A stretch of DNA of 64,000 nucleotides, taken from contig MFUV01000010.1 in NCBI GenBank assembly GCA_001787005.1, forward strand, positions 9,955-73,954, given 5' to 3'. Position numbers and translations under genes: made by a program. Within the stretch, counting starts at the first letter, position 1. Each line of letters starts with the position of its first letter. Under the pieces are notes generated by a model. It was not told the DNA's origin and made no database searches. It saw only the letters and a list, made by a program, of their open reading frames with translations. Positions 5,248 to 42,477 of this stretch are shown piece by piece. This DNA comes from Candidatus Nomurabacteria bacterium RIFCSPLOWO2_01_FULL_39_18. GTDB lineage: Bacteria; Patescibacteriota; Minisyncoccia; Phycocordibacterales; UBA9973.

Positions 5248-5964
5248 ATGATTTTAAAGTATTTAGACAAAAACAATTTACACCACGCATATTTGATAGA
5301 AGGTTCTGGACTTGAGATTGTTCCGGAAATTTTAAAATTTATAAGAAGTTTGGGCATTGAGACAATCGGCAATGCGGATGTTTCTCACATAATGCTCGAC
5401 TCCTTTAAAATTGAAGATGCGCGCAATTTGAAATCTTACGCAGGAGAGAGAGGGACAACATCCGGTAAAAAAATATTTATAATTTCCACCAATAGCTTTT
5501 TATTAGAGGCGCAAAACAGCTTGCTCAAAATGTTCGAAGAGCCGATAGAGAACACGCATTTTTTCTTGGTTGTGCCGGATGTAAATGCCTTCCTCCCAAC
5601 CTTTATTTCAAGATTTTATTTAATTAAACCTGAAGCGGAATCCAGCCGTGAATTAGAAGAAGCGGAGAAATTTATCAGTATGCCATTGAAAGCTAGAATT
5701 GATTTCATTAAGGAATTATTGACTGAAGCGGAGGAACAAGACGAAGAAGGAAACGAAATTACTACTCTTGACTCTGCTCGATCTAGAGCCCTTAATTTTT
5801 TAAATGCTGTTGAATCTACCTTGCATAAAAAGACTATGTCAAAGACGGTCTTTGACATTGATTCTTTCGAGCAAATTTTTAAAGTTCGTGAATTTCTCCG
5901 CATGCCTGGAAGCTCTACAAAAACCCTTATGGAGTCGGTGGCATTGGCAATACCTGTGCTATAA
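5248..5964 (+). CDS. holB: DNA polymerase III delta-prime subunit-like AAA+ protein
   Basis: HAYLIEG..KKIFIIS..FEEP motif pattern of delta'. Confidence 0.6.
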   Translation: MILKYLDKNNLHHAYLIEGSGLEIVPEILKFIRSLGIETIGNADVSHIMLDSFKIEDARNLKSYAGERGTTSGKKIFIISTNSFLLEAQNSLLKMFEEPIENTHFFLVVPDVNAFLPTFISRFYLIKPEAESSRELEEAEKFISMPLKARIDFIKELLTEAEEQDEEGNEITTLDSARSRALNFLNAVESTLHKKTMSKTVFDIDSFEQIFKVREFLRMPGSSTKTLMESVALAIPVL

Positions 5965-30180: not shown

Positions 30181-30587
30181 AAAAACGTCGTTTTGGCACA
30201 GGAAAGTGGAATGGAATCGGAGGAAAATTAAAAAGGGGAGAAATCATCGCAGAGGCTTTAGTGAGAGAAACAAAAGAAGAAATAAATGTAGTGATAAGCG
30301 GGGATGATTTAGTTCAAGTGGCAACTTTAAATTTCTCCTTTAAAGACAACCCAGACTGGGATCAGCAAGTCCATGCATTCATCATAGAAAAATGGAAAGG
30401 GGAGCCAAAGGAAACCGAAGAAATGAGTCCCAGATGGTATCCAATTAAAAAACTCCCCTTTGAGGATATGTGGATTGACGATATTCATTGGTTGCCGTTG
30501 GTGCTGGAGGGCAAAAAAATAAATGCTTCATTTAATTTCGACAAAACAGGCGACAAAATTTTAAATATGAAAGTTGAAGAAATATGA
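30177..30587 (+). CDS. NUDIX hydrolase
   Basis: Nudix box GGKLKRGEIIAEALVRETKEEINV. Confidence 0.7.
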   Translation: MKKRRFGTGKWNGIGGKLKRGEIIAEALVRETKEEINVVISGDDLVQVATLNFSFKDNPDWDQQVHAFIIEKWKGEPKETEEMSPRWYPIKKLPFEDMWIDDIHWLPLVLEGKKINASFNFDKTGDKILNMKVEEI

Positions 30588-30598
30588 TAAAATAGTAT

Positions 30599-30632
30599 AC
30601 ATACTAACATACTGGAGTTTGTAAGAATATTA
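30599..30632. promoter_or_regulatory. 34-bp conserved motif ACATACTAACATACTGGAGTTTGTAAGAATATTA ending 17 bp upstream of the ArsR-family gene
   Basis: Near-identical copy at 41623-41656 upstream of purQ; inverted partial copy at 30946-30966 downstream of the same gene. Confidence 0.5.
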
Positions 30633-30648
30633 TGTAATAATAAATAAA

Positions 30649-30939
30649 ATGACAAAAAATATAAAAACAGCAAGACAGATGGAACGACATTTGAAGGGGA
30701 TAGCAAATCACCATCGCATCGCAATTATTTTATTGATTGATAAATGTAGTGGTATCACCTTAGATCAAATCATCACTACACTTAATGCGAATGCGAAAAC
30801 TTTAGGTGAACACACAAGGAGGCTTTGCCAAGCAGGATTAGTTAATAAAAGATACAGGGGAAAATTTGTAGAACATACTTTATCACCATATGGAAAAATG
30901 TTTGCACGTTTTTTAAAATCTTTCCAATCCATTAAATGA
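30649..30939 (+). CDS. ArsR/SmtB-family winged-helix transcriptional regulator
   Basis: 96 aa; HRIAIILLIDKCSGITLDQIITTLNANAKTLGEHTRRLCQAGLV HTH pattern. Confidence 0.55.
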   Translation: MTKNIKTARQMERHLKGIANHHRIAIILLIDKCSGITLDQIITTLNANAKTLGEHTRRLCQAGLVNKRYRGKFVEHTLSPYGKMFARFLKSFQSIK

Positions 30940-30945
30940 CAATAT

Positions 30946-30966
30946 CATACTTACAAACTCCAGTAT
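30946..30966. promoter_or_regulatory. inverted partial copy (17 nt) of the ACTGGAGTTTGTAAG motif downstream of the ArsR-family gene
   Basis: catacttacaaactccagtat is the reverse complement of atactggagtttgtaag. Confidence 0.45.
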
Positions 30967-31101
30967 TTAAGGGTAAGTTACGATTGTAAATTGTTTATGC
31001 AAAAAATTAAAAGGAACAGATTTTCAGAAGCTTTCCGTCGCAAGGACGGAGAAATGAGCGACACTAAAAAACCAAAAATGATATAATGGAACTGGCTCAT
31101 T

Positions 31102-35247: not shown

Positions 35248-38145
35248 ATGATTTCCCGAATATTCGTAATGCTGAAAAATGGGGCGACGAGAGCAGATTC
35301 TTATCTTATCGATTCTAAATTCTTGAAAAAAGAGTTAATCAAACTTGCGGAAGCGCTGACTAATCCGATCCTAGAAAATTTCTCTATCAACAACTTGGAG
35401 GTCTTGCCTCCAAATGGAGGCAAGACCTCCAAGTTTACTTATGCGATTGAAATTGGTTTCAAGCCTGGGGTGACCGATAATGTTGGACACACCGTCGAGG
35501 AAATTGCCAGAGATCTGCTTGGTGTAAAAAAGAATCCTGACTTCCACGTGTATACTTCAAAAATTGTTTTCATCTCTCTTTCAAAAAAAGATGCGGAAAA
35601 ATACGCTCTTACTTTGTATAACCCACTAATTGAAAAATCACTGATAGTACCAGTGAAGAACAAAAAGATAAGTTTGCCTAAAAAAGTGCCAAAGGTTGTC
35701 CTTAAAAAAAGAAAACCGGTTATAAATGTTTCTCTTAAGGTTTCTGATGAAGAACTCATTAAAATCGGCAAAGAGGGAATAAAGGATGGAGACGGCACAC
35801 GCAGAGGGCCATTGGCGCTCGACCTGGCATCTATGAAAACCATTCAGGGATATTTTAAAAAATTAAAAAGAAGTCCGACAGATATAGAACTTGAGTCCCT
35901 GGCGCAAACTTGGTCGGAACATTGCAAACATACCATTTTCGCCAATCCGATTGATAATATAAAAGATGGCTTATATAAAACTTATATAAAAGGCGCAACC
36001 AATTTAATACGCAAACAAAAAGGTAAAAATGATTTCTGCGTTTCTGTTTTCTCTGACAACTCTGGTGGAATTATTTTTGATAAGGACTATTTAATCACAC
36101 ATAAGGTTGAGACGCACAACAGCCCCTCGGCACTTGACCCGTTTGGCGGAGCTATTACCGGCATCGGAGGGGTAAATCGTGATGCCATTGGCTTCGGACT
36201 TGGCGCCAAACCAGTTGCGAATACTTATGGATTCTGCCTCGCTCCACCAGATGAAAAAAGAAAATTATTTAGGGATAAAGACAGAACTCAAGCCTTGCTA
36301 CCCGCAAAAAGAATTATGGAAGGAGTAATAAAGGGGATTAATGTCGGAGGAAATTGTTCCGGTATTCCGACTCTTTCCGGATTTATTAAATTCGATGACA
36401 GATTTAGAGGCAAACCTTTAGTTTTCGCTGGAACAGTTGGATTAATCCCGAGAAAGAATGGTAGTAAACTTCTACACGAGAAGAAGGCAAGGGTGGGGGA
36501 CTATATTGTGATGGTTGGCGGAAAGGTAGGGCTTGATGGTATACATGGAGCGACTTTTTCTTCGGTAACTCTTGATTCAACTTCGCCCGCAACCGCAGTG
36601 CAAATTGGCGACCCCATAACTCAAAAAAAGTTAAGCGATGCGATAGTCAAAGAAGCCAGGGGATTAAATTTATACAACAGCATCACGGACGACGGCGCGG
36701 GAGGACTGTCTTGTTCCGTGGCAGAAATGGCAAAAGAATGTGGTGGAGCAAAAGTAATGCTTGAAAAGGTGCCCTTGAAATACCCAGGACTGCGCCCTTG
36801 GGAAATCTGGATTTCGGAATCCCAGGAGCGGATGACACTCTCTGTGCCAAAAAAAAAGTGGAAGAAGTTTAATGAATTGATGAAAAGTCGGGGAGTAGAA
36901 GCTACGGTGATAGGAAAATTCACAAATTCAGGGAATTGTGTTGTGAATTATAAAGGCAAAAAGATAATGGACCTAGATATGGAATTCCTGCATAATGGAC
37001 TTCCCAAACAGCATTTAACCACGATTCCATATTTACAAAATAATAAAGAGCCTCAAATTCCCAAAAATTCATCACTTACAAAAACTTTGGAAAATTTGCT
37101 GGGAAATAATAACATCAGCGGTTTTTCTTATATCTCACAACAATATGACCATGAGGTGCAAGCGTCTTCTGTATTAAAACCTCTCTCGGGCAGGGGTCGC
37201 ATCAACACCGATGCGCAAGTTTTCCGGCCAGTTCTAAGTTCGGAAAAGGGCGTTATTCTGTCTACCGGAGTTTATCCTTCATATGGAGACATCAATACTT
37301 ATTACATGGCGGCTTGCGCGTTAGATACAGCAATTCGAAATATTATTGCTTCTGGTGGGTCACTATCTAATCTTGCGATCTTGGATAATTTCTGTTGGTG
37401 CTCGTCGTATGATAAAACTCGCTTGGCACAGCTTGTGGACGCAGTAAAGGCATGCTACGACTACGGAGTGGGCTACGGCACGCCTTTTATATCCGGTAAG
37501 GACAGCATGTTTAATGATTTTAGGGGTTATGATGAGAAGGGTAATCCTATCGCTATTTCTATCCCGCCAACACTGCTCATCTCGGCAATTGGAGTGGTGC
37601 CTGATATTTATAAAATAATTTCTCCTGAATTTAAAAATGTTGGAGACGTGATTTACTTGCTCGGAAAGACGGATGATGAGCTTGGTGGAAGTGAGTACTA
37701 TAAATCACTAAAGGCGGTTGGGAATGATGTGCCGAAAGTTAATTTGGAAAAAAATTTAAAAACATATTTAGCGCTTGAAAGGGCTATCCAGAAAGAATTG
37801 GTTGCTTCTTCGATTTCTGTAACTTCTGGGGGACTGGCAATAGCGCTGGCTAAGACATGTGTCGGTGGAATGCTCGGATGTAATATTAGCGTCAGGGGCA
37901 TGCCTGGAAGTTCAAAATCGGCCGATGCGAAGCTTTTTTCCGAAAGCCAGGGAAGGATTCTGGTATCTATATCGCCCCAAAATATAAGCGCATTTGAAAA
38001 AATCATAAAAAATATTCCTTATGCTAAAATGGGGAAAGTTGTAAAAGACGGAAAATTCACAATTACAGACAAAACAAAAATAGTTAAAACCGATGTTAAA
38101 AAACTGTACAAAATTTATCACAGATTTTCAGAAAAAATGAAATGA
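35248..38145 (+). CDS. purL: phosphoribosylformylglycinamidine synthase subunit PurL with N-terminal PurS-like domain
   Basis: 965 aa; N-terminal segment FKPGVTDNVGHTVEEIARDLLG resembles PurS; AIR-synthase-related repeats follow (ETHNSPSALDPFGGAITGIGG). Confidence 0.85.
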   Translation: MISRIFVMLKNGATRADSYLIDSKFLKKELIKLAEALTNPILENFSINNLEVLPPNGGKTSKFTYAIEIGFKPGVTDNVGHTVEEIARDLLGVKKNPDFHVYTSKIVFISLSKKDAEKYALTLYNPLIEKSLIVPVKNKKISLPKKVPKVVLKKRKPVINVSLKVSDEELIKIGKEGIKDGDGTRRGPLALDLASMKTIQGYFKKLKRSPTDIELESLAQTWSEHCKHTIFANPIDNIKDGLYKTYIKGATNLIRKQKGKNDFCVSVFSDNSGGIIFDKDYLITHKVETHNSPSALDPFGGAITGIGGVNRDAIGFGLGAKPVANTYGFCLAPPDEKRKLFRDKDRTQALLPAKRIMEGVIKGINVGGNCSGIPTLSGFIKFDDRFRGKPLVFAGTVGLIPRKNGSKLLHEKKARVGDYIVMVGGKVGLDGIHGATFSSVTLDSTSPATAVQIGDPITQKKLSDAIVKEARGLNLYNSITDDGAGGLSCSVAEMAKECGGAKVMLEKVPLKYPGLRPWEIWISESQERMTLSVPKKKWKKFNELMKSRGVEATVIGKFTNSGNCVVNYKGKKIMDLDMEFLHNGLPKQHLTTIPYLQNNKEPQIPKNSSLTKTLENLLGNNNISGFSYISQQYDHEVQASSVLKPLSGRGRINTDAQVFRPVLSSEKGVILSTGVYPSYGDINTYYMAACALDTAIRNIIASGGSLSNLAILDNFCWCSSYDKTRLAQLVDAVKACYDYGVGYGTPFISGKDSMFNDFRGYDEKGNPIAISIPPTLLISAIGVVPDIYKIISPEFKNVGDVIYLLGKTDDELGGSEYYKSLKAVGNDVPKVNLEKNLKTYLALERAIQKELVASSISVTSGGLAIALAKTCVGGMLGCNISVRGMPGSSKSADAKLFSESQGRILVSISPQNISAFEKIIKNIPYAKMGKVVKDGKFTITDKTKIVKTDVKKLYKIYHRFSEKMK

Positions 38146-39833
38146 AAACTGAAAATAAAAAATGCGAAAGTTGTAAAAAGGATTTCACTATCGAGCCGGA
38201 TGATTTTGGATTCTATGAACAAATGAAGGTCCCGCCGCCGGTCTGGTGTCCGCATTGCAGACTTCTGCGACGAATGGCTTGGTATGGCTACCGAATTTTA
38301 TATAAGCGCAAATGCGATTTCACCGGAGAAAATATTATCACGTTTTACCATCCGGATTTACCAGTCAAAGTCTACAAGCAAGATGTTTGGTGGGGCGATG
38401 GCTGGGATCCAAAAAGTTATGGGTGTGACTATGATTTCAATAGGCCTTTTTTCGAGCAGTATAAAGAATTATTGGATGAAGTGCCGAAGGCATCGCTCCA
38501 CACAGAATACAGCACTATGATAAACAGTGAATACTGCAACGCCGCCAGCTTTCAGAAAAATGGCTACTTGTGTTTCAAACATATTACCGGTGAAGATTCC
38601 GCATATACAAATGTTGCCTTAAATACGAAAGATTCTCTCGACCTGGCTTATTCCGCCGATCCTGAGCTTTGTTATGAAATTGTTGACGTGCGGAAGTGTT
38701 TTCAGACATTTTTTTCTCAGGATTGCGAGAATTGCCAAAATGTTTATTTTTCTCGAGACTTAGTGAATTGCGGCGATTGCTTTGGATGCACTTCTCTAAG
38801 AAATAAAAATTATTATATCTTTAACGAACAATATACACGAGAAGAATATATGAAAAAACTCAAGGAATTTAATCTTGGTTCAATGAAAAATGTACAGAAG
38901 TTCAAAAAGCAGGCATATGCCCTCTCGTTAAACTTTCCTCGTCGTTCCACGATGGGTCGTAATAATACAAATGTTTCTGGTGAATATATTTATAATTCTA
39001 AAAATACTCATGATTCATACTTCATTGCAGATTCAGAAAACGTCAGATATTGTCAATTGTTTTTAAAAGGCGGGGTGCATAACTGCTATGATTTCACGGC
39101 TTTTGGCTCTGCTTCAGAATGGGTTTACGAAGCGACGTGGACTGGGCTTAATACCTCCAATGTAAAATTCAGTATTTGGAATTATCGCAATCATGATACT
39201 GAATATACCTTTGGTTGCCATGGATGCGCTTATTTATTTGGTTGTGTCGGACTCCGAAAGGCGGAATATTGCATTTTCAACAAGCAATACACTAAGGAAG
39301 AATATTTTCCACTGGTTGAGAAAATAAAAAAGCAGATGGATGACATGCCATTCGTGGACAGAAGGGGATTAGAACATAGATATGGCGGGCAAATGCCTAT
39401 AGATCTTTGTCCTTGGGCATACAATGAAACTACCGCTTACGAATTTTTTCCACTCACCAAAGAAGAAGCATTGGCAAAAGGCTTTGCCTGGCGCGACCCT
39501 GACGAACGAGAATATCTTCCAGCCACCATTGTCGTGCCTGACCATATTAAAGATGTAACAGATGATATAACAAAAGAAGTTTTGAAGTGCGAAGCTTGTG
39601 GCAAAAATTATCAAATTATTCAAAAAGAACTTCAATTTTTGAAACGATTTAATCTTCCCATCCCTATCCATTGCCCGCTTTGTCGTGACAGGGCCCGCAT
39701 TAAACAATTAAACCCAATACAAAGCTATAATCGCAAATGTGATAAGTGCGATGTGACCATCCAAACTTCCTACGCTCCCGACCGACCAGAAATAGTGTAT
39801 TGCGAGAATTGTTACAAACAAGAAGTATATTAA
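38142..39833 (+). CDS. large cysteine-rich protein of unknown function, paralog 1 (zinc-ribbon-like modules at both termini)
   Basis: 563 aa, >35 Cys; N-terminal CESCKK..FYEQMKVPPPVWCPHCRLLRR, C-terminal CEACGK..IHCPLCRDRAR..YCENCYKQEVY; two internal C-x2-C..FGC..FN.QYT.EEY repeats; overlaps the purL stop by 4 nt. Confidence 0.5.
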   Translation: MKTENKKCESCKKDFTIEPDDFGFYEQMKVPPPVWCPHCRLLRRMAWYGYRILYKRKCDFTGENIITFYHPDLPVKVYKQDVWWGDGWDPKSYGCDYDFNRPFFEQYKELLDEVPKASLHTEYSTMINSEYCNAASFQKNGYLCFKHITGEDSAYTNVALNTKDSLDLAYSADPELCYEIVDVRKCFQTFFSQDCENCQNVYFSRDLVNCGDCFGCTSLRNKNYYIFNEQYTREEYMKKLKEFNLGSMKNVQKFKKQAYALSLNFPRRSTMGRNNTNVSGEYIYNSKNTHDSYFIADSENVRYCQLFLKGGVHNCYDFTAFGSASEWVYEATWTGLNTSNVKFSIWNYRNHDTEYTFGCHGCAYLFGCVGLRKAEYCIFNKQYTKEEYFPLVEKIKKQMDDMPFVDRRGLEHRYGGQMPIDLCPWAYNETTAYEFFPLTKEEALAKGFAWRDPDEREYLPATIVVPDHIKDVTDDITKEVLKCEACGKNYQIIQKELQFLKRFNLPIPIHCPLCRDRARIKQLNPIQSYNRKCDKCDVTIQTSYAPDRPEIVYCENCYKQEVY

Positions 39834-39837
39834 AATG

Positions 39838-39874
39838 CTATTCTAGTGTTTTGCAAAAAACTGAAATAAGAAAA
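39838..39874. promoter_or_regulatory. copy of the TTCTAGTGTTTTGCAAAA-ACTGAAATA motif between the two Cys-rich paralogs
   Basis: ctattctagtgttttgcaaaaaactgaaataagaaaa; about 95% identical to 56897-56934 and related to the palindrome at 1788. Confidence 0.45.
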
Positions 39875-41619
39875 TGGAGAATAAAAAAGAAAACAAAATA
39901 TGCCAGAATTGTAAAAAGAATTTCGTCATTGAACCGGATGATTTTTCTTTTTATGAAAAGATGCGGGTACCGCCGCCGACCTTTTGCCCGGAGTGCAGAT
40001 TTCAAAGAAGACTATTGTTCAGAAATAATCGGGTTTTTTATAGGCGAGAGTGCGCTTTATGTAATAAATCAATATTGAGTGTGTACAACAAGAAAAAGTC
40101 TTACACTATTTTTTGTCATGAATGTTGGCTTTCTGATAAATGGGATCCAATGGACTATGGCCGCGAATATGATTTTTCCATTCCATTTTTCAGCCAATTT
40201 CGCTCACTGCAATCAAAAGTCCCCAGGGCGAATTTATATAGAGAAAATTTTATATTAAGTGATTACTGCAACTACGGTCTTGATTTTAAAGAATGCTATT
40301 TATTGTTTGGTGGACAAAATAACGAAAGAGTATATTTTGGAAACCAAATTTTTGATTCACACGATTCTTTTGATATAGCTTTTTCTGAAAAAGTAGAATT
40401 CAGTTATGAAATTTTTGAATGCGCCAGAACCAATCTTTTGTTCTTCAGCCACCATTCAAATGACTGCATTGATAGTTTTTATTTAGCAGACTGTAGAAAC
40501 TGCATGAATTGTTTTGGTTGTGTTGGGTTAGTGAACAAACAATATTATGTTTTTAATAAACCATACACCAAAGAACAATATCAAAAATTTATAAAATCAA
40601 ATAATATTGGAAGTTTCAAAAATCATCAGGAATTCCTTAAAAAACTCAAAGAATTAGAATCAAAAATACCTCATCGTTATGCTCGTATTTATAAATCAGT
40701 GAATTCTGACGGTGACGACTTGTCAGAAGCTAGAAGTACTCATAACTCTTTTAGCTCTCGCCAAGCTGAAGATTCTAAATATTTATTTTTCTGCAGGCAT
40801 AGGTCAAAAGATTGCTATGATAATTCGTTTAATGGCGTAAACGCTGAACTTCTTTATGAGATTGCTCATGGTTTTGGAGGATCAAATGGAGCCTTCAGCA
40901 TGAGAAATTTTGATAACCAAGATTTTTTCTATAACGAAGAATGCCATAACTGCCATAATATTTTCGGATGTGAAGGTCTACGCAAGAAACAGTACTGTAT
41001 TTTAAATAAACAATACAACAAAAAAGAATATGGAGAGATTTTGCCAAAAATAATCAAGCACATGAATGATATGCCGTATCATGACCAGAAAGGAAGAACC
41101 TATAAATACGGAGAGTTTTTCCCGGCGGAACTTTCGCCTTTTGCTTATAATGAAAGTATCGCTCAAGAATATTTCCCCTTAACAAAGGAAGAAGCTTTAG
41201 AACAAGAATATAAATGGGAAGATGGAGAAACGAGGAATTATAAAATTGATATAGATAGTAAAGATATCCCAGACCACATAAAAGATGTTGGGGAGGATAT
41301 TGTGGGTAAAGTTATCGCTTGTGAACATGCGGGAGGATGCAAAGACCAATGCACTGAAGCATTTAAGATTGTTCCAGAAGAATATAAATTTTATAAAAGA
41401 TTCAACTTGCCACTACCCAGGTTGTGTTCAAATTGCCGGCATTATCAGCGAATCGGATTAAGAAATCCACTAAAGCTCTGGGATAGAAAGTGCATGTGTG
41501 ATAAAGAAGGTCATTTCCATGAAAAAGAAAAATGTGTAGTAGAATTCAAAACAAGTTACGCTCCCGATCGACCAGAAATCATTTTTTGTGAAAAATGTTA
41601 CCAGCAAGAAATTTATTAG
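39874..41619 (+). CDS. large cysteine-rich protein of unknown function, paralog 2
   Basis: 581 aa; same architecture as paralog 1 and roughly 40-45% identical by eye (CQNCKKNF..FYEKMRVPPPTFCPECRFQRR .. FCEKCYQQEIY). Confidence 0.5.
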   Translation: MENKKENKICQNCKKNFVIEPDDFSFYEKMRVPPPTFCPECRFQRRLLFRNNRVFYRRECALCNKSILSVYNKKKSYTIFCHECWLSDKWDPMDYGREYDFSIPFFSQFRSLQSKVPRANLYRENFILSDYCNYGLDFKECYLLFGGQNNERVYFGNQIFDSHDSFDIAFSEKVEFSYEIFECARTNLLFFSHHSNDCIDSFYLADCRNCMNCFGCVGLVNKQYYVFNKPYTKEQYQKFIKSNNIGSFKNHQEFLKKLKELESKIPHRYARIYKSVNSDGDDLSEARSTHNSFSSRQAEDSKYLFFCRHRSKDCYDNSFNGVNAELLYEIAHGFGGSNGAFSMRNFDNQDFFYNEECHNCHNIFGCEGLRKKQYCILNKQYNKKEYGEILPKIIKHMNDMPYHDQKGRTYKYGEFFPAELSPFAYNESIAQEYFPLTKEEALEQEYKWEDGETRNYKIDIDSKDIPDHIKDVGEDIVGKVIACEHAGGCKDQCTEAFKIVPEEYKFYKRFNLPLPRLCSNCRHYQRIGLRNPLKLWDRKCMCDKEGHFHEKEKCVVEFKTSYAPDRPEIIFCEKCYQQEIY

Positions 41620-41622
41620 TAC

Positions 41623-41656
41623 ACATACCAACATACTGGAGTTTGTAAGGATATTA
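41623..41656. promoter_or_regulatory. second copy of the 34-bp ACATAC-AACATACTGGAGTTTGTAAG-ATATTA motif, ending 5 bp upstream of the purQ ATG
   Basis: 32/34 identical to 30599-30632. Confidence 0.5.
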
Positions 41657-41661
41657 AAATT

Positions 41662-42477
41662 ATGGAAAAGAAAAATAAATCAAAAAATAAAAAACCGAAA
41701 ATCATTGTCCTCTCTGGGTATGGACTTAATTGCGAAGAAGAAACGAAGTTTGCTTTTGAGTCTGCGGGTGCAAAAAAAAATGTAAGAGCGGACATCGTGC
41801 ACATCAATGACTTGATTGCTAAACCGAGAATGTTGCAGAAGTATGACGTCATGGCTTTTCCAGGTGGATTTTCTTATGGTGATGATACGGGAAGCGGGAA
41901 AGCTTATGCTAATAAATTCAAAAATTATTTAGCAAAAGAACTGGAAGAATTTTTAGCGCGTGATACTCTTGTTATTGGCATTTGTAATGGATTTCAAATA
42001 ATCACAAACTTAGGAATTCTGCCCGGAGCGCTAACATATAATAAAAATGGAAGATATCTTGATCGTTGGGTTGATTTGAAAGTAACGGGACGAAGTCCTT
42101 GGCTCAAGGATATTAAAAAAATATCTCTTCCCATAGCGCACGGTGAGGGACATTATGTTATTTCACCTAAAGAATACAAAAAAATACAAAAGGATAAACA
42201 AATAGCATTTAAATATATAAAAGGGGAAATCTGTAAATTCCAAAATTTGGAACATAACCCAAATGGATCAGACTATGACATTGCGGGTGTTTTGGCTTAT
42301 AATGGAAGGGTTCTTGGATTGATGCCTCACCCTGAGCGAGCAATGTTTTCTCATCAAAACCCTTTGTGGCATATAAATAAAAACACACCAAAAGAAGGGA
42401 GGGGATTGCAGGTTTTTAAAAATGCTATAAATTATTTTTCCGCCCGAGGCGGATCCGCCTATGGCGGAAAGAAATAA
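41662..42477 (+). CDS. purQ: phosphoribosylformylglycinamidine synthase glutamine amidotransferase subunit
   Basis: Class I GATase: GICNGFQI catalytic Cys, HPE at the C-terminus. Confidence 0.85.
   Translation: MEKKNKSKNKKPKIIVLSGYGLNCEEETKFAFESAGAKKNVRADIVHINDLIAKPRMLQKYDVMAFPGGFSYGDDTGSGKAYANKFKNYLAKELEEFLARDTLVIGICNGFQIITNLGILPGALTYNKNGRYLDRWVDLKVTGRSPWLKDIKKISLPIAHGEGHYVISPKEYKKIQKDKQIAFKYIKGEICKFQNLEHNPNGSDYDIAGVLAYNGRVLGLMPHPERAMFSHQNPLWHINKNTPKEGRGLQVFKNAINYFSARGGSAYGGKK

Follow-up and report, generated by a model that had tools for sequence, protein, structure and literature searches.

The palindromes and the regulator gene

The window analysed here is a stretch of 64 kb from a Candidatus Nomurabacteria genome, and the coordinates given below are positions in it, except where a locus of another genome (L number) is named. 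It holds a gene for a 96-aa ArsR/SmtB-like winged-helix protein, with one copy of a near-palindrome ahead of the gene, another just behind it and a third ahead of purQ. The palindrome is probably the operator of the protein encoded between the two copies. The features concerned are the following:

30599-30632, + strand: direct copy 1, ACATACTAACATACTGGAGTTTGTAAGAATATTA, with a gap of 16 nt to the ATG at 30649
30599..30630, + strand: O-up, candidate upstream operator, ACATAC ta ACATAC tgga GTTTGT aa GAATAT, of the GG-centre ('P') type
30633..30642, + strand: putative -10 region, TGTAATAAT, 6-7 nt before the ATG, placed by homology (locus L046 has TAAAAT here)
30649..30939, + strand: gene for the 96-aa ArsR/SmtB-like winged-helix protein, P subfamily
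30946-30966: inverted copy, catacTTACAAACTCCAGTAT, 6 nt past the TGA (30937-30939)
30945..30976, - strand: O-down, candidate downstream operator, beginning 5 nt past the stop codon
41623-41656, + strand: copy 3, ACATACCAACATACTGGAGTTTGTAAGGATATTA, 5 nt ahead of the purQ ATG (41662)
41623..41654, + strand: O3, the third copy of the site, ACATAC ca ACATAC tgga GTTTGT aa GGATAT

The 17-nt core of the palindrome, ATACTGGAGTTTGTAAG, has three exact matches in the window: 30609-30625 (+), 30950-30966 (-) and 41633-41649 (+). A fourth match is absent from the window even at up to 3 mismatches (0.18 expected by chance), and three core matches were obtained in 0 of 100 shuffled windows. The 34-mer, its inverted copy and the purQ copy lie where an earlier note on this DNA had placed them, with offsets correct within 1 nt. 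The near-identical direct copy that it reported ahead of purQ was also recovered, the direct copies being 93% identical across 40 nt (30593-30632 vs 41617-41656). Copy 3 begins 3 nt past the stop codon (41617-41619) of the second of two genes for Cys-rich proteins.

Every window copy is a near-palindrome of ~32 bp composed of four ACAWNC hexamers, and is a degenerate form of the site found in other genomes. A position weight matrix of this family, made from 130 sites all belonging to other genomes, scores O-up at 36.8, O-down at 31.5 and O3 at 41.5 bits (family median 47) and identifies no other match of at least 8 bits in the 64 kb. On the + strand O-down reads TCATAC tt ACAAAC tcca GTATTT aa GGGTAA, with a CC centre, and on the - strand TTACCC tt AAATAC tgga GTTTGT aa GTATGA. 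The downstream copy had been described as inverted, which is correct for the core, located on the - strand; the copies are self-palindromic, so O-down differs from the direct copy mainly by a central CC for GG and its orientation rests essentially on this. An invertible segment was discarded as an explanation, since the +/- layout consists only of the GG and CC centres and most loci in other genomes have both copies in + orientation.

Recurrence of the module in other genomes

The exact 17-mer was scanned on both strands of one genome per GTDB species (596 Gb). The scan yielded 57 loci, near the chance number (~70 expected), of which ~15 belong to the Candidate Phyla Radiation (CPR)/Patescibacteria, and only these have palindromic flanks. 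In the CPR loci the core sits inside a long palindrome, e.g. ACATCCTTAC-ATACTGGAGTTT-GTAAGGATGT. Seven loci (L012, L021, L023, L027, L030, L046 and L049) present the palindrome adjoining a gene for a 96-aa homologue, ~70-80% identical. L046, from the sister genome RIFCSPLOWO2_01_FULL_39_17, contains the same +/- pair with a CC-centre downstream copy, 338 nt apart, and in this genome the exact core was identified at the regulator only. A generic repeat, as considered in the earlier note, would be found at dozens of unrelated positions; the copies in the window are few (3 in 64 kb).

The linkage between gene and palindrome was examined in 80 metagenomic loci (69 distinct) chosen by protein similarity alone, with the flanks inspected afterwards. 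The anatomy of the module is conserved, and a regulator gene between palindromes, for which the same note had suggested a comparison with related genomes, recurs in almost all of them:

Palindrome upstream of the gene: 67/69 loci, same orientation as the gene in 64, modal position 16 nt before the ATG
Palindrome downstream of the gene: 63/69 loci, same orientation as the gene in 57, located -1 to +4 nt from the stop codon in 45

The family site is ACATCC tt ACAAAC t[g/t]ga G[tt/aa]TGT aa GGATGT, with the hexamers arranged -> -> <- <- and centre-to-centre spacings of 8, 10 and 8 bp. The distance between the centres of O-up and O-down has a mode of 335-336 bp, ~32 helical turns, and is largely set by gene length. 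The next gene is co-directional in 48/57 loci and lies within 60 nt in 24, which leaves the downstream copy well placed to gate read-through.

Fusion of the upstream palindrome to a promoter

The upstream sites contain a -35-like TTGAGA at site positions 15-20, followed by a 16-nt spacer and TATAAT. The latter is perfect in 48/64 upstream flanks, matches at least 5/6 positions in 59/64, and is separated from the ATG by 6 nt in 45/64. The downstream sites lack an equivalent -10, only 4/57 reaching even a 4/6 match. In 64/69 loci the palindrome covers the -35/spacer region, as fits an operator located over its own promoter, the binding itself being predicted. With the palindrome over the -35/spacer and TATAAT 6 nt from the ATG, the predicted transcript begins at that codon or beside it and is leaderless. 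This arrangement implies a putatively autoregulated promoter and a leaderless or near-leaderless mRNA.

The regulator protein

P0001, a protein of Candidatus Nomurabacteria RIFCSPLOWO2_01_FULL_39_18, is 100% identical to the window protein. Counted as 90% clusters there are at least 1343 relatives, and those listed (120) are 68-82% identical. The relatives come from Nomura-, Sung-, Portnoy-, Staskawicz- and Paceibacterota metagenome-assembled genomes (MAGs), and only CPR names were found in the searches. An alignment of 25 sequences has 39 invariant columns.

The scores with family profiles stay below the cut-offs: 20.8 bits for Pfam HTH_24 (cut-off 21.9) and 31 bits for the NCBIfam ArsR/SmtB profile HTH_metalloreg (cut-off 55). 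Precomputed PF01022 (HTH_5) matches exist on many homologues, and the best match of a profile search against the PDB is HlyU (E 1.4e-4). Libraries of defence-system and phage profiles gave generic winged-helix matches only. The AlphaFold2 model (mean predicted local distance difference test, pLDDT, 83) has the topology a1-a2-a3-a4-b1-b2-a5, with helices at 8-18, 21-33, 38-45, 49-61 and 80-93 and strands at 65-70 and 73-78. The top Foldseek matches of the model are SqrR, HlyU, SmtB, CadC, PagR and CzrA, with template modelling (TM) scores of 0.68-0.77 (0.70-0.75 for the first four), probability 1.00 and 17-26% identity; the centromere-binding AspA is also among the fold matches (TMq 0.68-0.70). 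Model and Foldseek matches agree on an ArsR/SmtB winged-helix topology, and the earlier label 'ArsR-like' holds for the predicted fold, although the profile scores stay below threshold.

The a5 helix (80-93, PYGKxFVRFLKSFQ) has no His/Asp/Glu cluster, whereas His55 in the recognition helix and His76 in the wing are invariant. Lacking conserved Cys residues and an a5 ligand cluster, the protein is no canonical metal sensor. As modelled, it is a protein of ArsR fold that is neither a canonical metal sensor nor a recognisable persulfide sensor.

Co-variation of protein and palindrome

Two loci, L084 and L101, contain a second homologue, ~60% identical and roughly 1 kb from the P regulator, with its own palindrome type:

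L084: P/Q pair at 288-572 and 1454-1720
L101: P/Q pair at 1340-1624 and 2578-2886

The Q-type palindrome is ACATTC ca ACATTC ttga GAATGT tg GAATGT. A search with the Q protein revealed another large subfamily, ~60-65% identical to P. Five further Q loci (from Brenner-, Wolfe- and Pacebacteria and other MAGs) have the Q-type palindrome on both sides, which makes 7/7 Q loci in all, and in these five the downstream palindrome overlaps the last codons and the stop codon. Comparison of 120 P with 120 Q sequences identified four discriminating positions, G53S, K72R, L15F and L89I, the first located in the predicted recognition helix and the second in the wing. That Q regulators have Q sites (7/7) and P regulators have P sites (67/69) is, as judged from sequence, the best reason to think that the palindrome is read by the protein. 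It was also observed that the commonest P centre (CTTGAGAAT) has as its right inner hexamer the Q hexamer GAATGT.

The palindrome as a probable operator

The earlier note had offered two readings of the motif, the operator of this regulator or the terminal repeat of a mini-element. The first is strongly favoured by the comparative evidence: the palindromes bracket the gene (67 upstream and 63 downstream of 69 loci), the upstream one is fused to TATAAT, and the Q variant matches its regulator in 7/7 loci. From the conserved anatomy, the promoter fusion and the co-variation of protein and palindrome, which are observed, we infer the binding itself, the sign of regulation and the roles of O-down and O3.

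Under the operator reading, the ~32-bp site would be long enough for a dimer of dimers. O-up overlaps the -35/spacer, and binding there would shut off synthesis of the regulator, a negative autoregulation proposed from position. O-down, at the stop codon and without a promoter behind it, would most likely be a second operator; as a roadblock or insulator it could keep read-through out of the following gene, which mostly has the same direction. Alternatively it may be a looping partner for O-up, ~335 bp (~32 helical turns) away. In many lineages, this one not included, O-down may additionally form a stable 3' RNA hairpin. O3, if occupied, could be a roadblock to transcription coming from purL and the Cys-rich genes, and it overlaps the purQ ribosome-binding site (RBS); in this lineage only, it would tie purQ-purF-purN to the regulator.

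Several points weigh against this reading. All the evidence for an operator is positional and comparative. The window promoter is a weak version of the family promoter, with TGGAGT as -35 and TAATAAT as -10; the latter is assigned by inference from homology with L046, and its hexamer appears weaker than that of the family. No sensing site was found in the alignments or the model, where conserved Cys, a redox Cys pair and an alpha5 metal site were sought. The centres of the sites fall into two discrete types, CTTGAGAAT and CTGGAGTTT, with almost no intermediates, which the operator reading leaves unexplained. The centre of the downstream site is oriented with the gene (57/63 on the + strand) though no -10 follows, a bias for which a purely symmetric operator model fails to account. 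Finally, an ordinary ArsR dimer spans ~26 bp (12-2-12), and a 32-bp site of four hexamers with an inner-outer spacing of 8 bp would need an unusual stoichiometry or extensive wing contacts.

Hairpins, terminators and structured RNA

An alternative is that the palindromes work as hairpins of RNA or of single-stranded DNA, be it as intrinsic terminators, by stabilising 3' ends or as sites of processing, and that the winged-helix protein is not their ligand. The family consensus does form a hairpin, with a stem of 14-17 bp and -19 to -25 kcal/mol (z -6 to -7), and the sites are typically located exactly at gene ends, often with the stop codon within the outer arm. The three window copies, however, fold at only -6 to -7 kcal/mol (z -0.1 to -0.7), no better than shuffles, while their 17-nt core is still perfect. 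A run of at least four T follows 15/63 downstream copies and 0/67 upstream copies; no terminator-like call was obtained at any of the three window copies. An intrinsic terminator was rejected on these two results. The upstream copies are fused to a -10, so that the start of transcription falls downstream of them.

Pairing between the arms was counted over 94 unique sites, with 10 pairs per site. Complementarity within a site is slightly above random, 8.0 vs 7.5 of 10, beyond all 1000 shuffles, and within a locus there are 8.28 Watson-Crick pairs within a site vs 7.95 across sites. Nevertheless each arm varies almost without regard to the other, so that CATACCAAC...GTAAGGATG and similar mixed sites are common, and the best-conserved part of the site is its centre (C14, T15, G17, A18 and G19 are the most invariant positions), i.e. 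the would-be 'loop'. A conserved hairpin with a covarying stem, suggested by 13 GTDB matches, was consequently discarded given the independent arms over the 94 sites and the unfolded window copies. The conserved feature is, in terms of the aligned sites, the sequence and not the pairing.

Unrelated hairpins in the same Cys-rich/purQ gap of related pur operons speak for a hairpin role, and the absence of an Rfam family match speaks against it, with none at the gathering threshold in the window and none at E up to 1 in 30500-31100 and 41500-41800. With Rfam blank, a known structured RNA (riboswitch or leader) upstream of the pur genes was also rejected. A hairpin role would further leave the subfamily-specific palindrome types unexplained, and is improbable.

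Mobile elements and centromeres

In another reading the palindrome-gene-palindrome unit is a mobile or dispersed element or a derivative of one, similar to REP/RAYT (repetitive extragenic palindromes and their associated tyrosine transposases) or to MITEs (miniature inverted-repeat transposable elements), with solo palindromes, the purQ copy among them, and the copies within genes as its dispersed progeny. The neighbour genes differ at almost every locus, and many loci lie in defence or mobile islands with restriction-modification, Mrr, NERD, PIF1, toxin-antitoxin and GIY-YIG genes. Some genomes or contigs contain the module twice, namely L067 (1297-1596 and 6808-7092), L099/L107 and L012/L023. 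Beside guaB, where the window and L046 present the module, L140 lacks it and has no solo palindrome left. The palindromes found in frame within TspO and purB resemble Rickettsia palindromic elements, and O3 is a near-exact copy of O-up.

Against these similarities, no transposase or recombinase was identified in the module or consistently adjoining it, and 3-6-nt target-site duplications at the outer edges were found in 0/62 loci. The repeats are self-palindromic and mostly co-oriented, hence there are no terminal inverted repeats. Copies are also sparse: the 64 kb of the window contain 3 and the 74 kb of pur loci 0, and in 558 kb only a few sites lie more than 1 kb from a regulator. The precise and conserved fusion to a promoter points to a regulatory function instead. 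The mini-element with terminal repeats, the second reading of the earlier note, finds no support in these results in that form, and a transposon-like unit (insertion sequence or MITE with terminal inverted repeats) was rejected. A REP/RAYT system was discarded as well, the flanked gene being a winged-helix and not a Y1 transposase, with 3 copies in 64 kb. A mobile origin in the broader sense is quite improbable.

It is highly improbable that the sites are centromere-like or chromosome-organising and bound by the protein in the manner of the ArsR-fold AspA of plasmid pNOB8. In favour of it, AspA, a centromere-binding protein that binds a palindrome beside its own gene, is among the fold matches, and some sites lie within genes and at gene ends without a promoter. 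Against it, the neighbourhoods of the module showed no partner genes of ParA/ParB type, the fusion of the upstream site to a promoter is precise, and the closer fold and sequence matches are the transcription factors SqrR, HlyU, SmtB and CadC.

The purQ copy and the purine genes

The gene on the 5' side of the regulator is a Nudix gene. On the 3' side the order is a gene for a small membrane protein, a second Nudix gene, an ogt-like gene, guaB, purA, purL, two genes for Cys-rich paralogs, purQ, purF and purN. The candidate target of O3 is the following:

41662..42477, + strand: purQ (Pfam GATase_5, 1.6e-70; homologues named PurQ), then purF and purN

O3 takes up most of the 42 nt that separate the second Cys-rich paralog from purQ, and its right arm holds the likely Shine-Dalgarno sequence of purQ (AAGGA, 41646-41650). 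The left arm of O3 has 1 difference from O-up, while the L046 ortholog of O-up has 5. O3 is therefore closer to O-up than that ortholog is, and is probably, by this count, a recent intragenomic copy of O-up.

According to the earlier note, an operator ahead of purQ would place this gene and the downstream pur genes under control of the regulator. The copy is there; the control it was taken to imply is in doubt on three grounds. No -10 is present at the family offset after O3, nor was any promoter-like or terminator-like call obtained there. Four related pur operons, L138-L141, fetched via PurQ homologues (PurQ 76-83% identical), contain 0 sites of the palindrome in 74 kb, and the copy ahead of purQ seems confined to this genome. 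Lastly, the purQ gap may just want a hairpin of any kind. A conserved control of purQ was rejected, with no site in the four operons. Control of purQ in this genome, by a roadblock or by occlusion of the RBS and not by repression of a promoter, is plausible if on the doubtful side.

The Cys-rich/purQ gap seems to hold some palindrome in several lineages. Unrelated hairpins or palindromes are located there at 9950-10000 of L138, e.g. TACTTATAA...TTATAAGTA, and at 9955-10000 of L140, e.g. TATTCTACAAT...ATTGTAGAATA. The Cys-rich paralogs of the window, of 563 and 581 aa (38142-39833 and 39874-41619), lie between purL and purQ and match no Pfam or NCBIfam family. One or two copies of the Cys-rich insertion were identified in the related Nomurabacteria pur operons L138, L140, L141 and L046, and none in L139. 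This distribution suggests that the paralogs are an uncharacterised, probably zinc-binding, component tied to the formylglycinamidine ribonucleotide (FGAM) synthase step.

Other purine genes were found near sites or regulators. L017 (Nomurabacteria MFTV01000010.1) contains at 5609-5640 a P-type site of 34.5 bits in frame within the purB of its pur operon, the length of this purB being unchanged in comparison with another PurB; it connects the palindrome with purine genes a second time, independently of O3. In L131 the regulator follows a purM-like gene. A loose, repeated association of the palindrome or the regulator with purine genes exists.

Other sites and palindrome families

In 558 kb around regulators there are about two dozen further strong sites, mostly within ~1 kb of a regulator gene and some at gene ends. 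The full module of site, TATAAT and ATG was identified before a SWIM-domain gene in L085, L090 and L103; in L115 the site is present before the SWIM-domain gene and the canonical -10 is absent. Such modules before other genes near the regulator look like what a small regulon would be.

TspO/MBR genes beside the regulator contain an in-frame copy of the putative operator, at a constant distance of ~212 nt from the start of the gene:

TspO copies: L083 8541-8572, L103 1647-1678, L113 8722-8753, L124 3488-3519, L125 225-256

The P-type copy encodes HPYILENVRML and the Q-type copy, in a paralogous TspO, HSHILENVRML or HSNILENVRML. Where a TspO gene lacks the site, the loop at that position is shorter.

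The TspO, purB and purQ copies could be the work of a portable CPR regulatory cassette whose palindromes spread and rewire genes to paralogous mini-repressors (P, Q and further types). This wider scheme is considered unlikely.

A second and unrelated family of ~32-bp palindromes (TTCTAGTGTTTTG/CAAAACACTAGAA) is present in the window at 1787-1820, between convergent rsmI-like and lysA-like genes; at 39836-39869, in the gap between the Cys-rich paralogs; and at 56895-56926, in frame in the open reading frame 56711-57094. ACACTAGAATAG is common to this family and to the palindrome that precedes a distant regulator paralog (35% identity) in L121. Another winged-helix paralog may have this second family as its operator; no second regulator paralog, as a candidate owner, is encoded in the 64 kb.

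Significance and comparison with known systems

To our knowledge the control of transcription in CPR bacteria, which are not growable alone and have very few regulators, is almost unknown. The module provides a testable pair, a ~95-aa protein and a 32-bp site, little changed across many Parcubacteria-type lineages, and the P pair is accompanied by a second subfamily of switched specificity. It suggests that CPR bacteria use leaderless promoters with embedded operators, that copies of an operator can occupy stop codons and even in-frame positions in genes, and that lineages recruit genes by copying the site, here possibly purQ-purF-purN. It would also give a handle for reporter systems and for the reading of CPR metatranscriptomes.

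Full-text literature searches yielded no description of this regulator family or motif. The operator/regulator module is real and apparently undescribed. Its mechanism would be that of a classical autoregulated repressor and its two-flank architecture is unusual, so the surprise is in the architecture and the distribution, not in the principle.

The minimal, non-metal ArsR/SmtB-family regulators HlyU, SqrR/BigR and PagR are alike in their size of ~95 aa, in predicted fold and in having the gene beside a palindromic site. HlyU and SqrR/BigR have a Cys pair, whereas the family of the window has no conserved Cys, shares ~23-26% identity with them and is unusually conserved (68-82% among the relatives listed). 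In SmtB/CzrA an imperfect long palindrome with room for two dimers lies over the -35/spacer of an autoregulated promoter. The promoter-overlapping layout is the same here, with a 15-2-15 site of four hexamers at 8-10-8 instead of 12-2-12, a further copy where the regulator gene has its stop codon (63/69) and a predicted leaderless mRNA.

Auxiliary operators within or after genes, acting by looping or as roadblocks, are represented by LacI O2, GalR OI and DeoR. The likeness is in two operators a few hundred bp apart, one of them promoterless; the difference is that here the auxiliary site brackets the gene of the regulator itself and not a target, looping being only a candidate. REPIN/RAYT systems (REPINs being paired REP sequences) are alike in having a gene flanked on both sides by a palindromic repeat that is found elsewhere at gene ends. 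They comprise a Y1 transposase and hundreds of copies, in contrast to the 96-aa winged-helix protein, the handful of copies and the promoter fusion found here. The portable cassette considered above would be a similar partnership, its cognate protein being a repressor instead of a transposase. The closest analogues are the SmtB/CzrA 12-2-12 sites and proteins of HlyU/SqrR size. From these the present module is set apart by its 15-2-15 site of four hexamers, by the copy that regularly accompanies the stop codon, by the predicted leaderless promoter, and by the in-frame copies within genes and the paralogs with switched sites.

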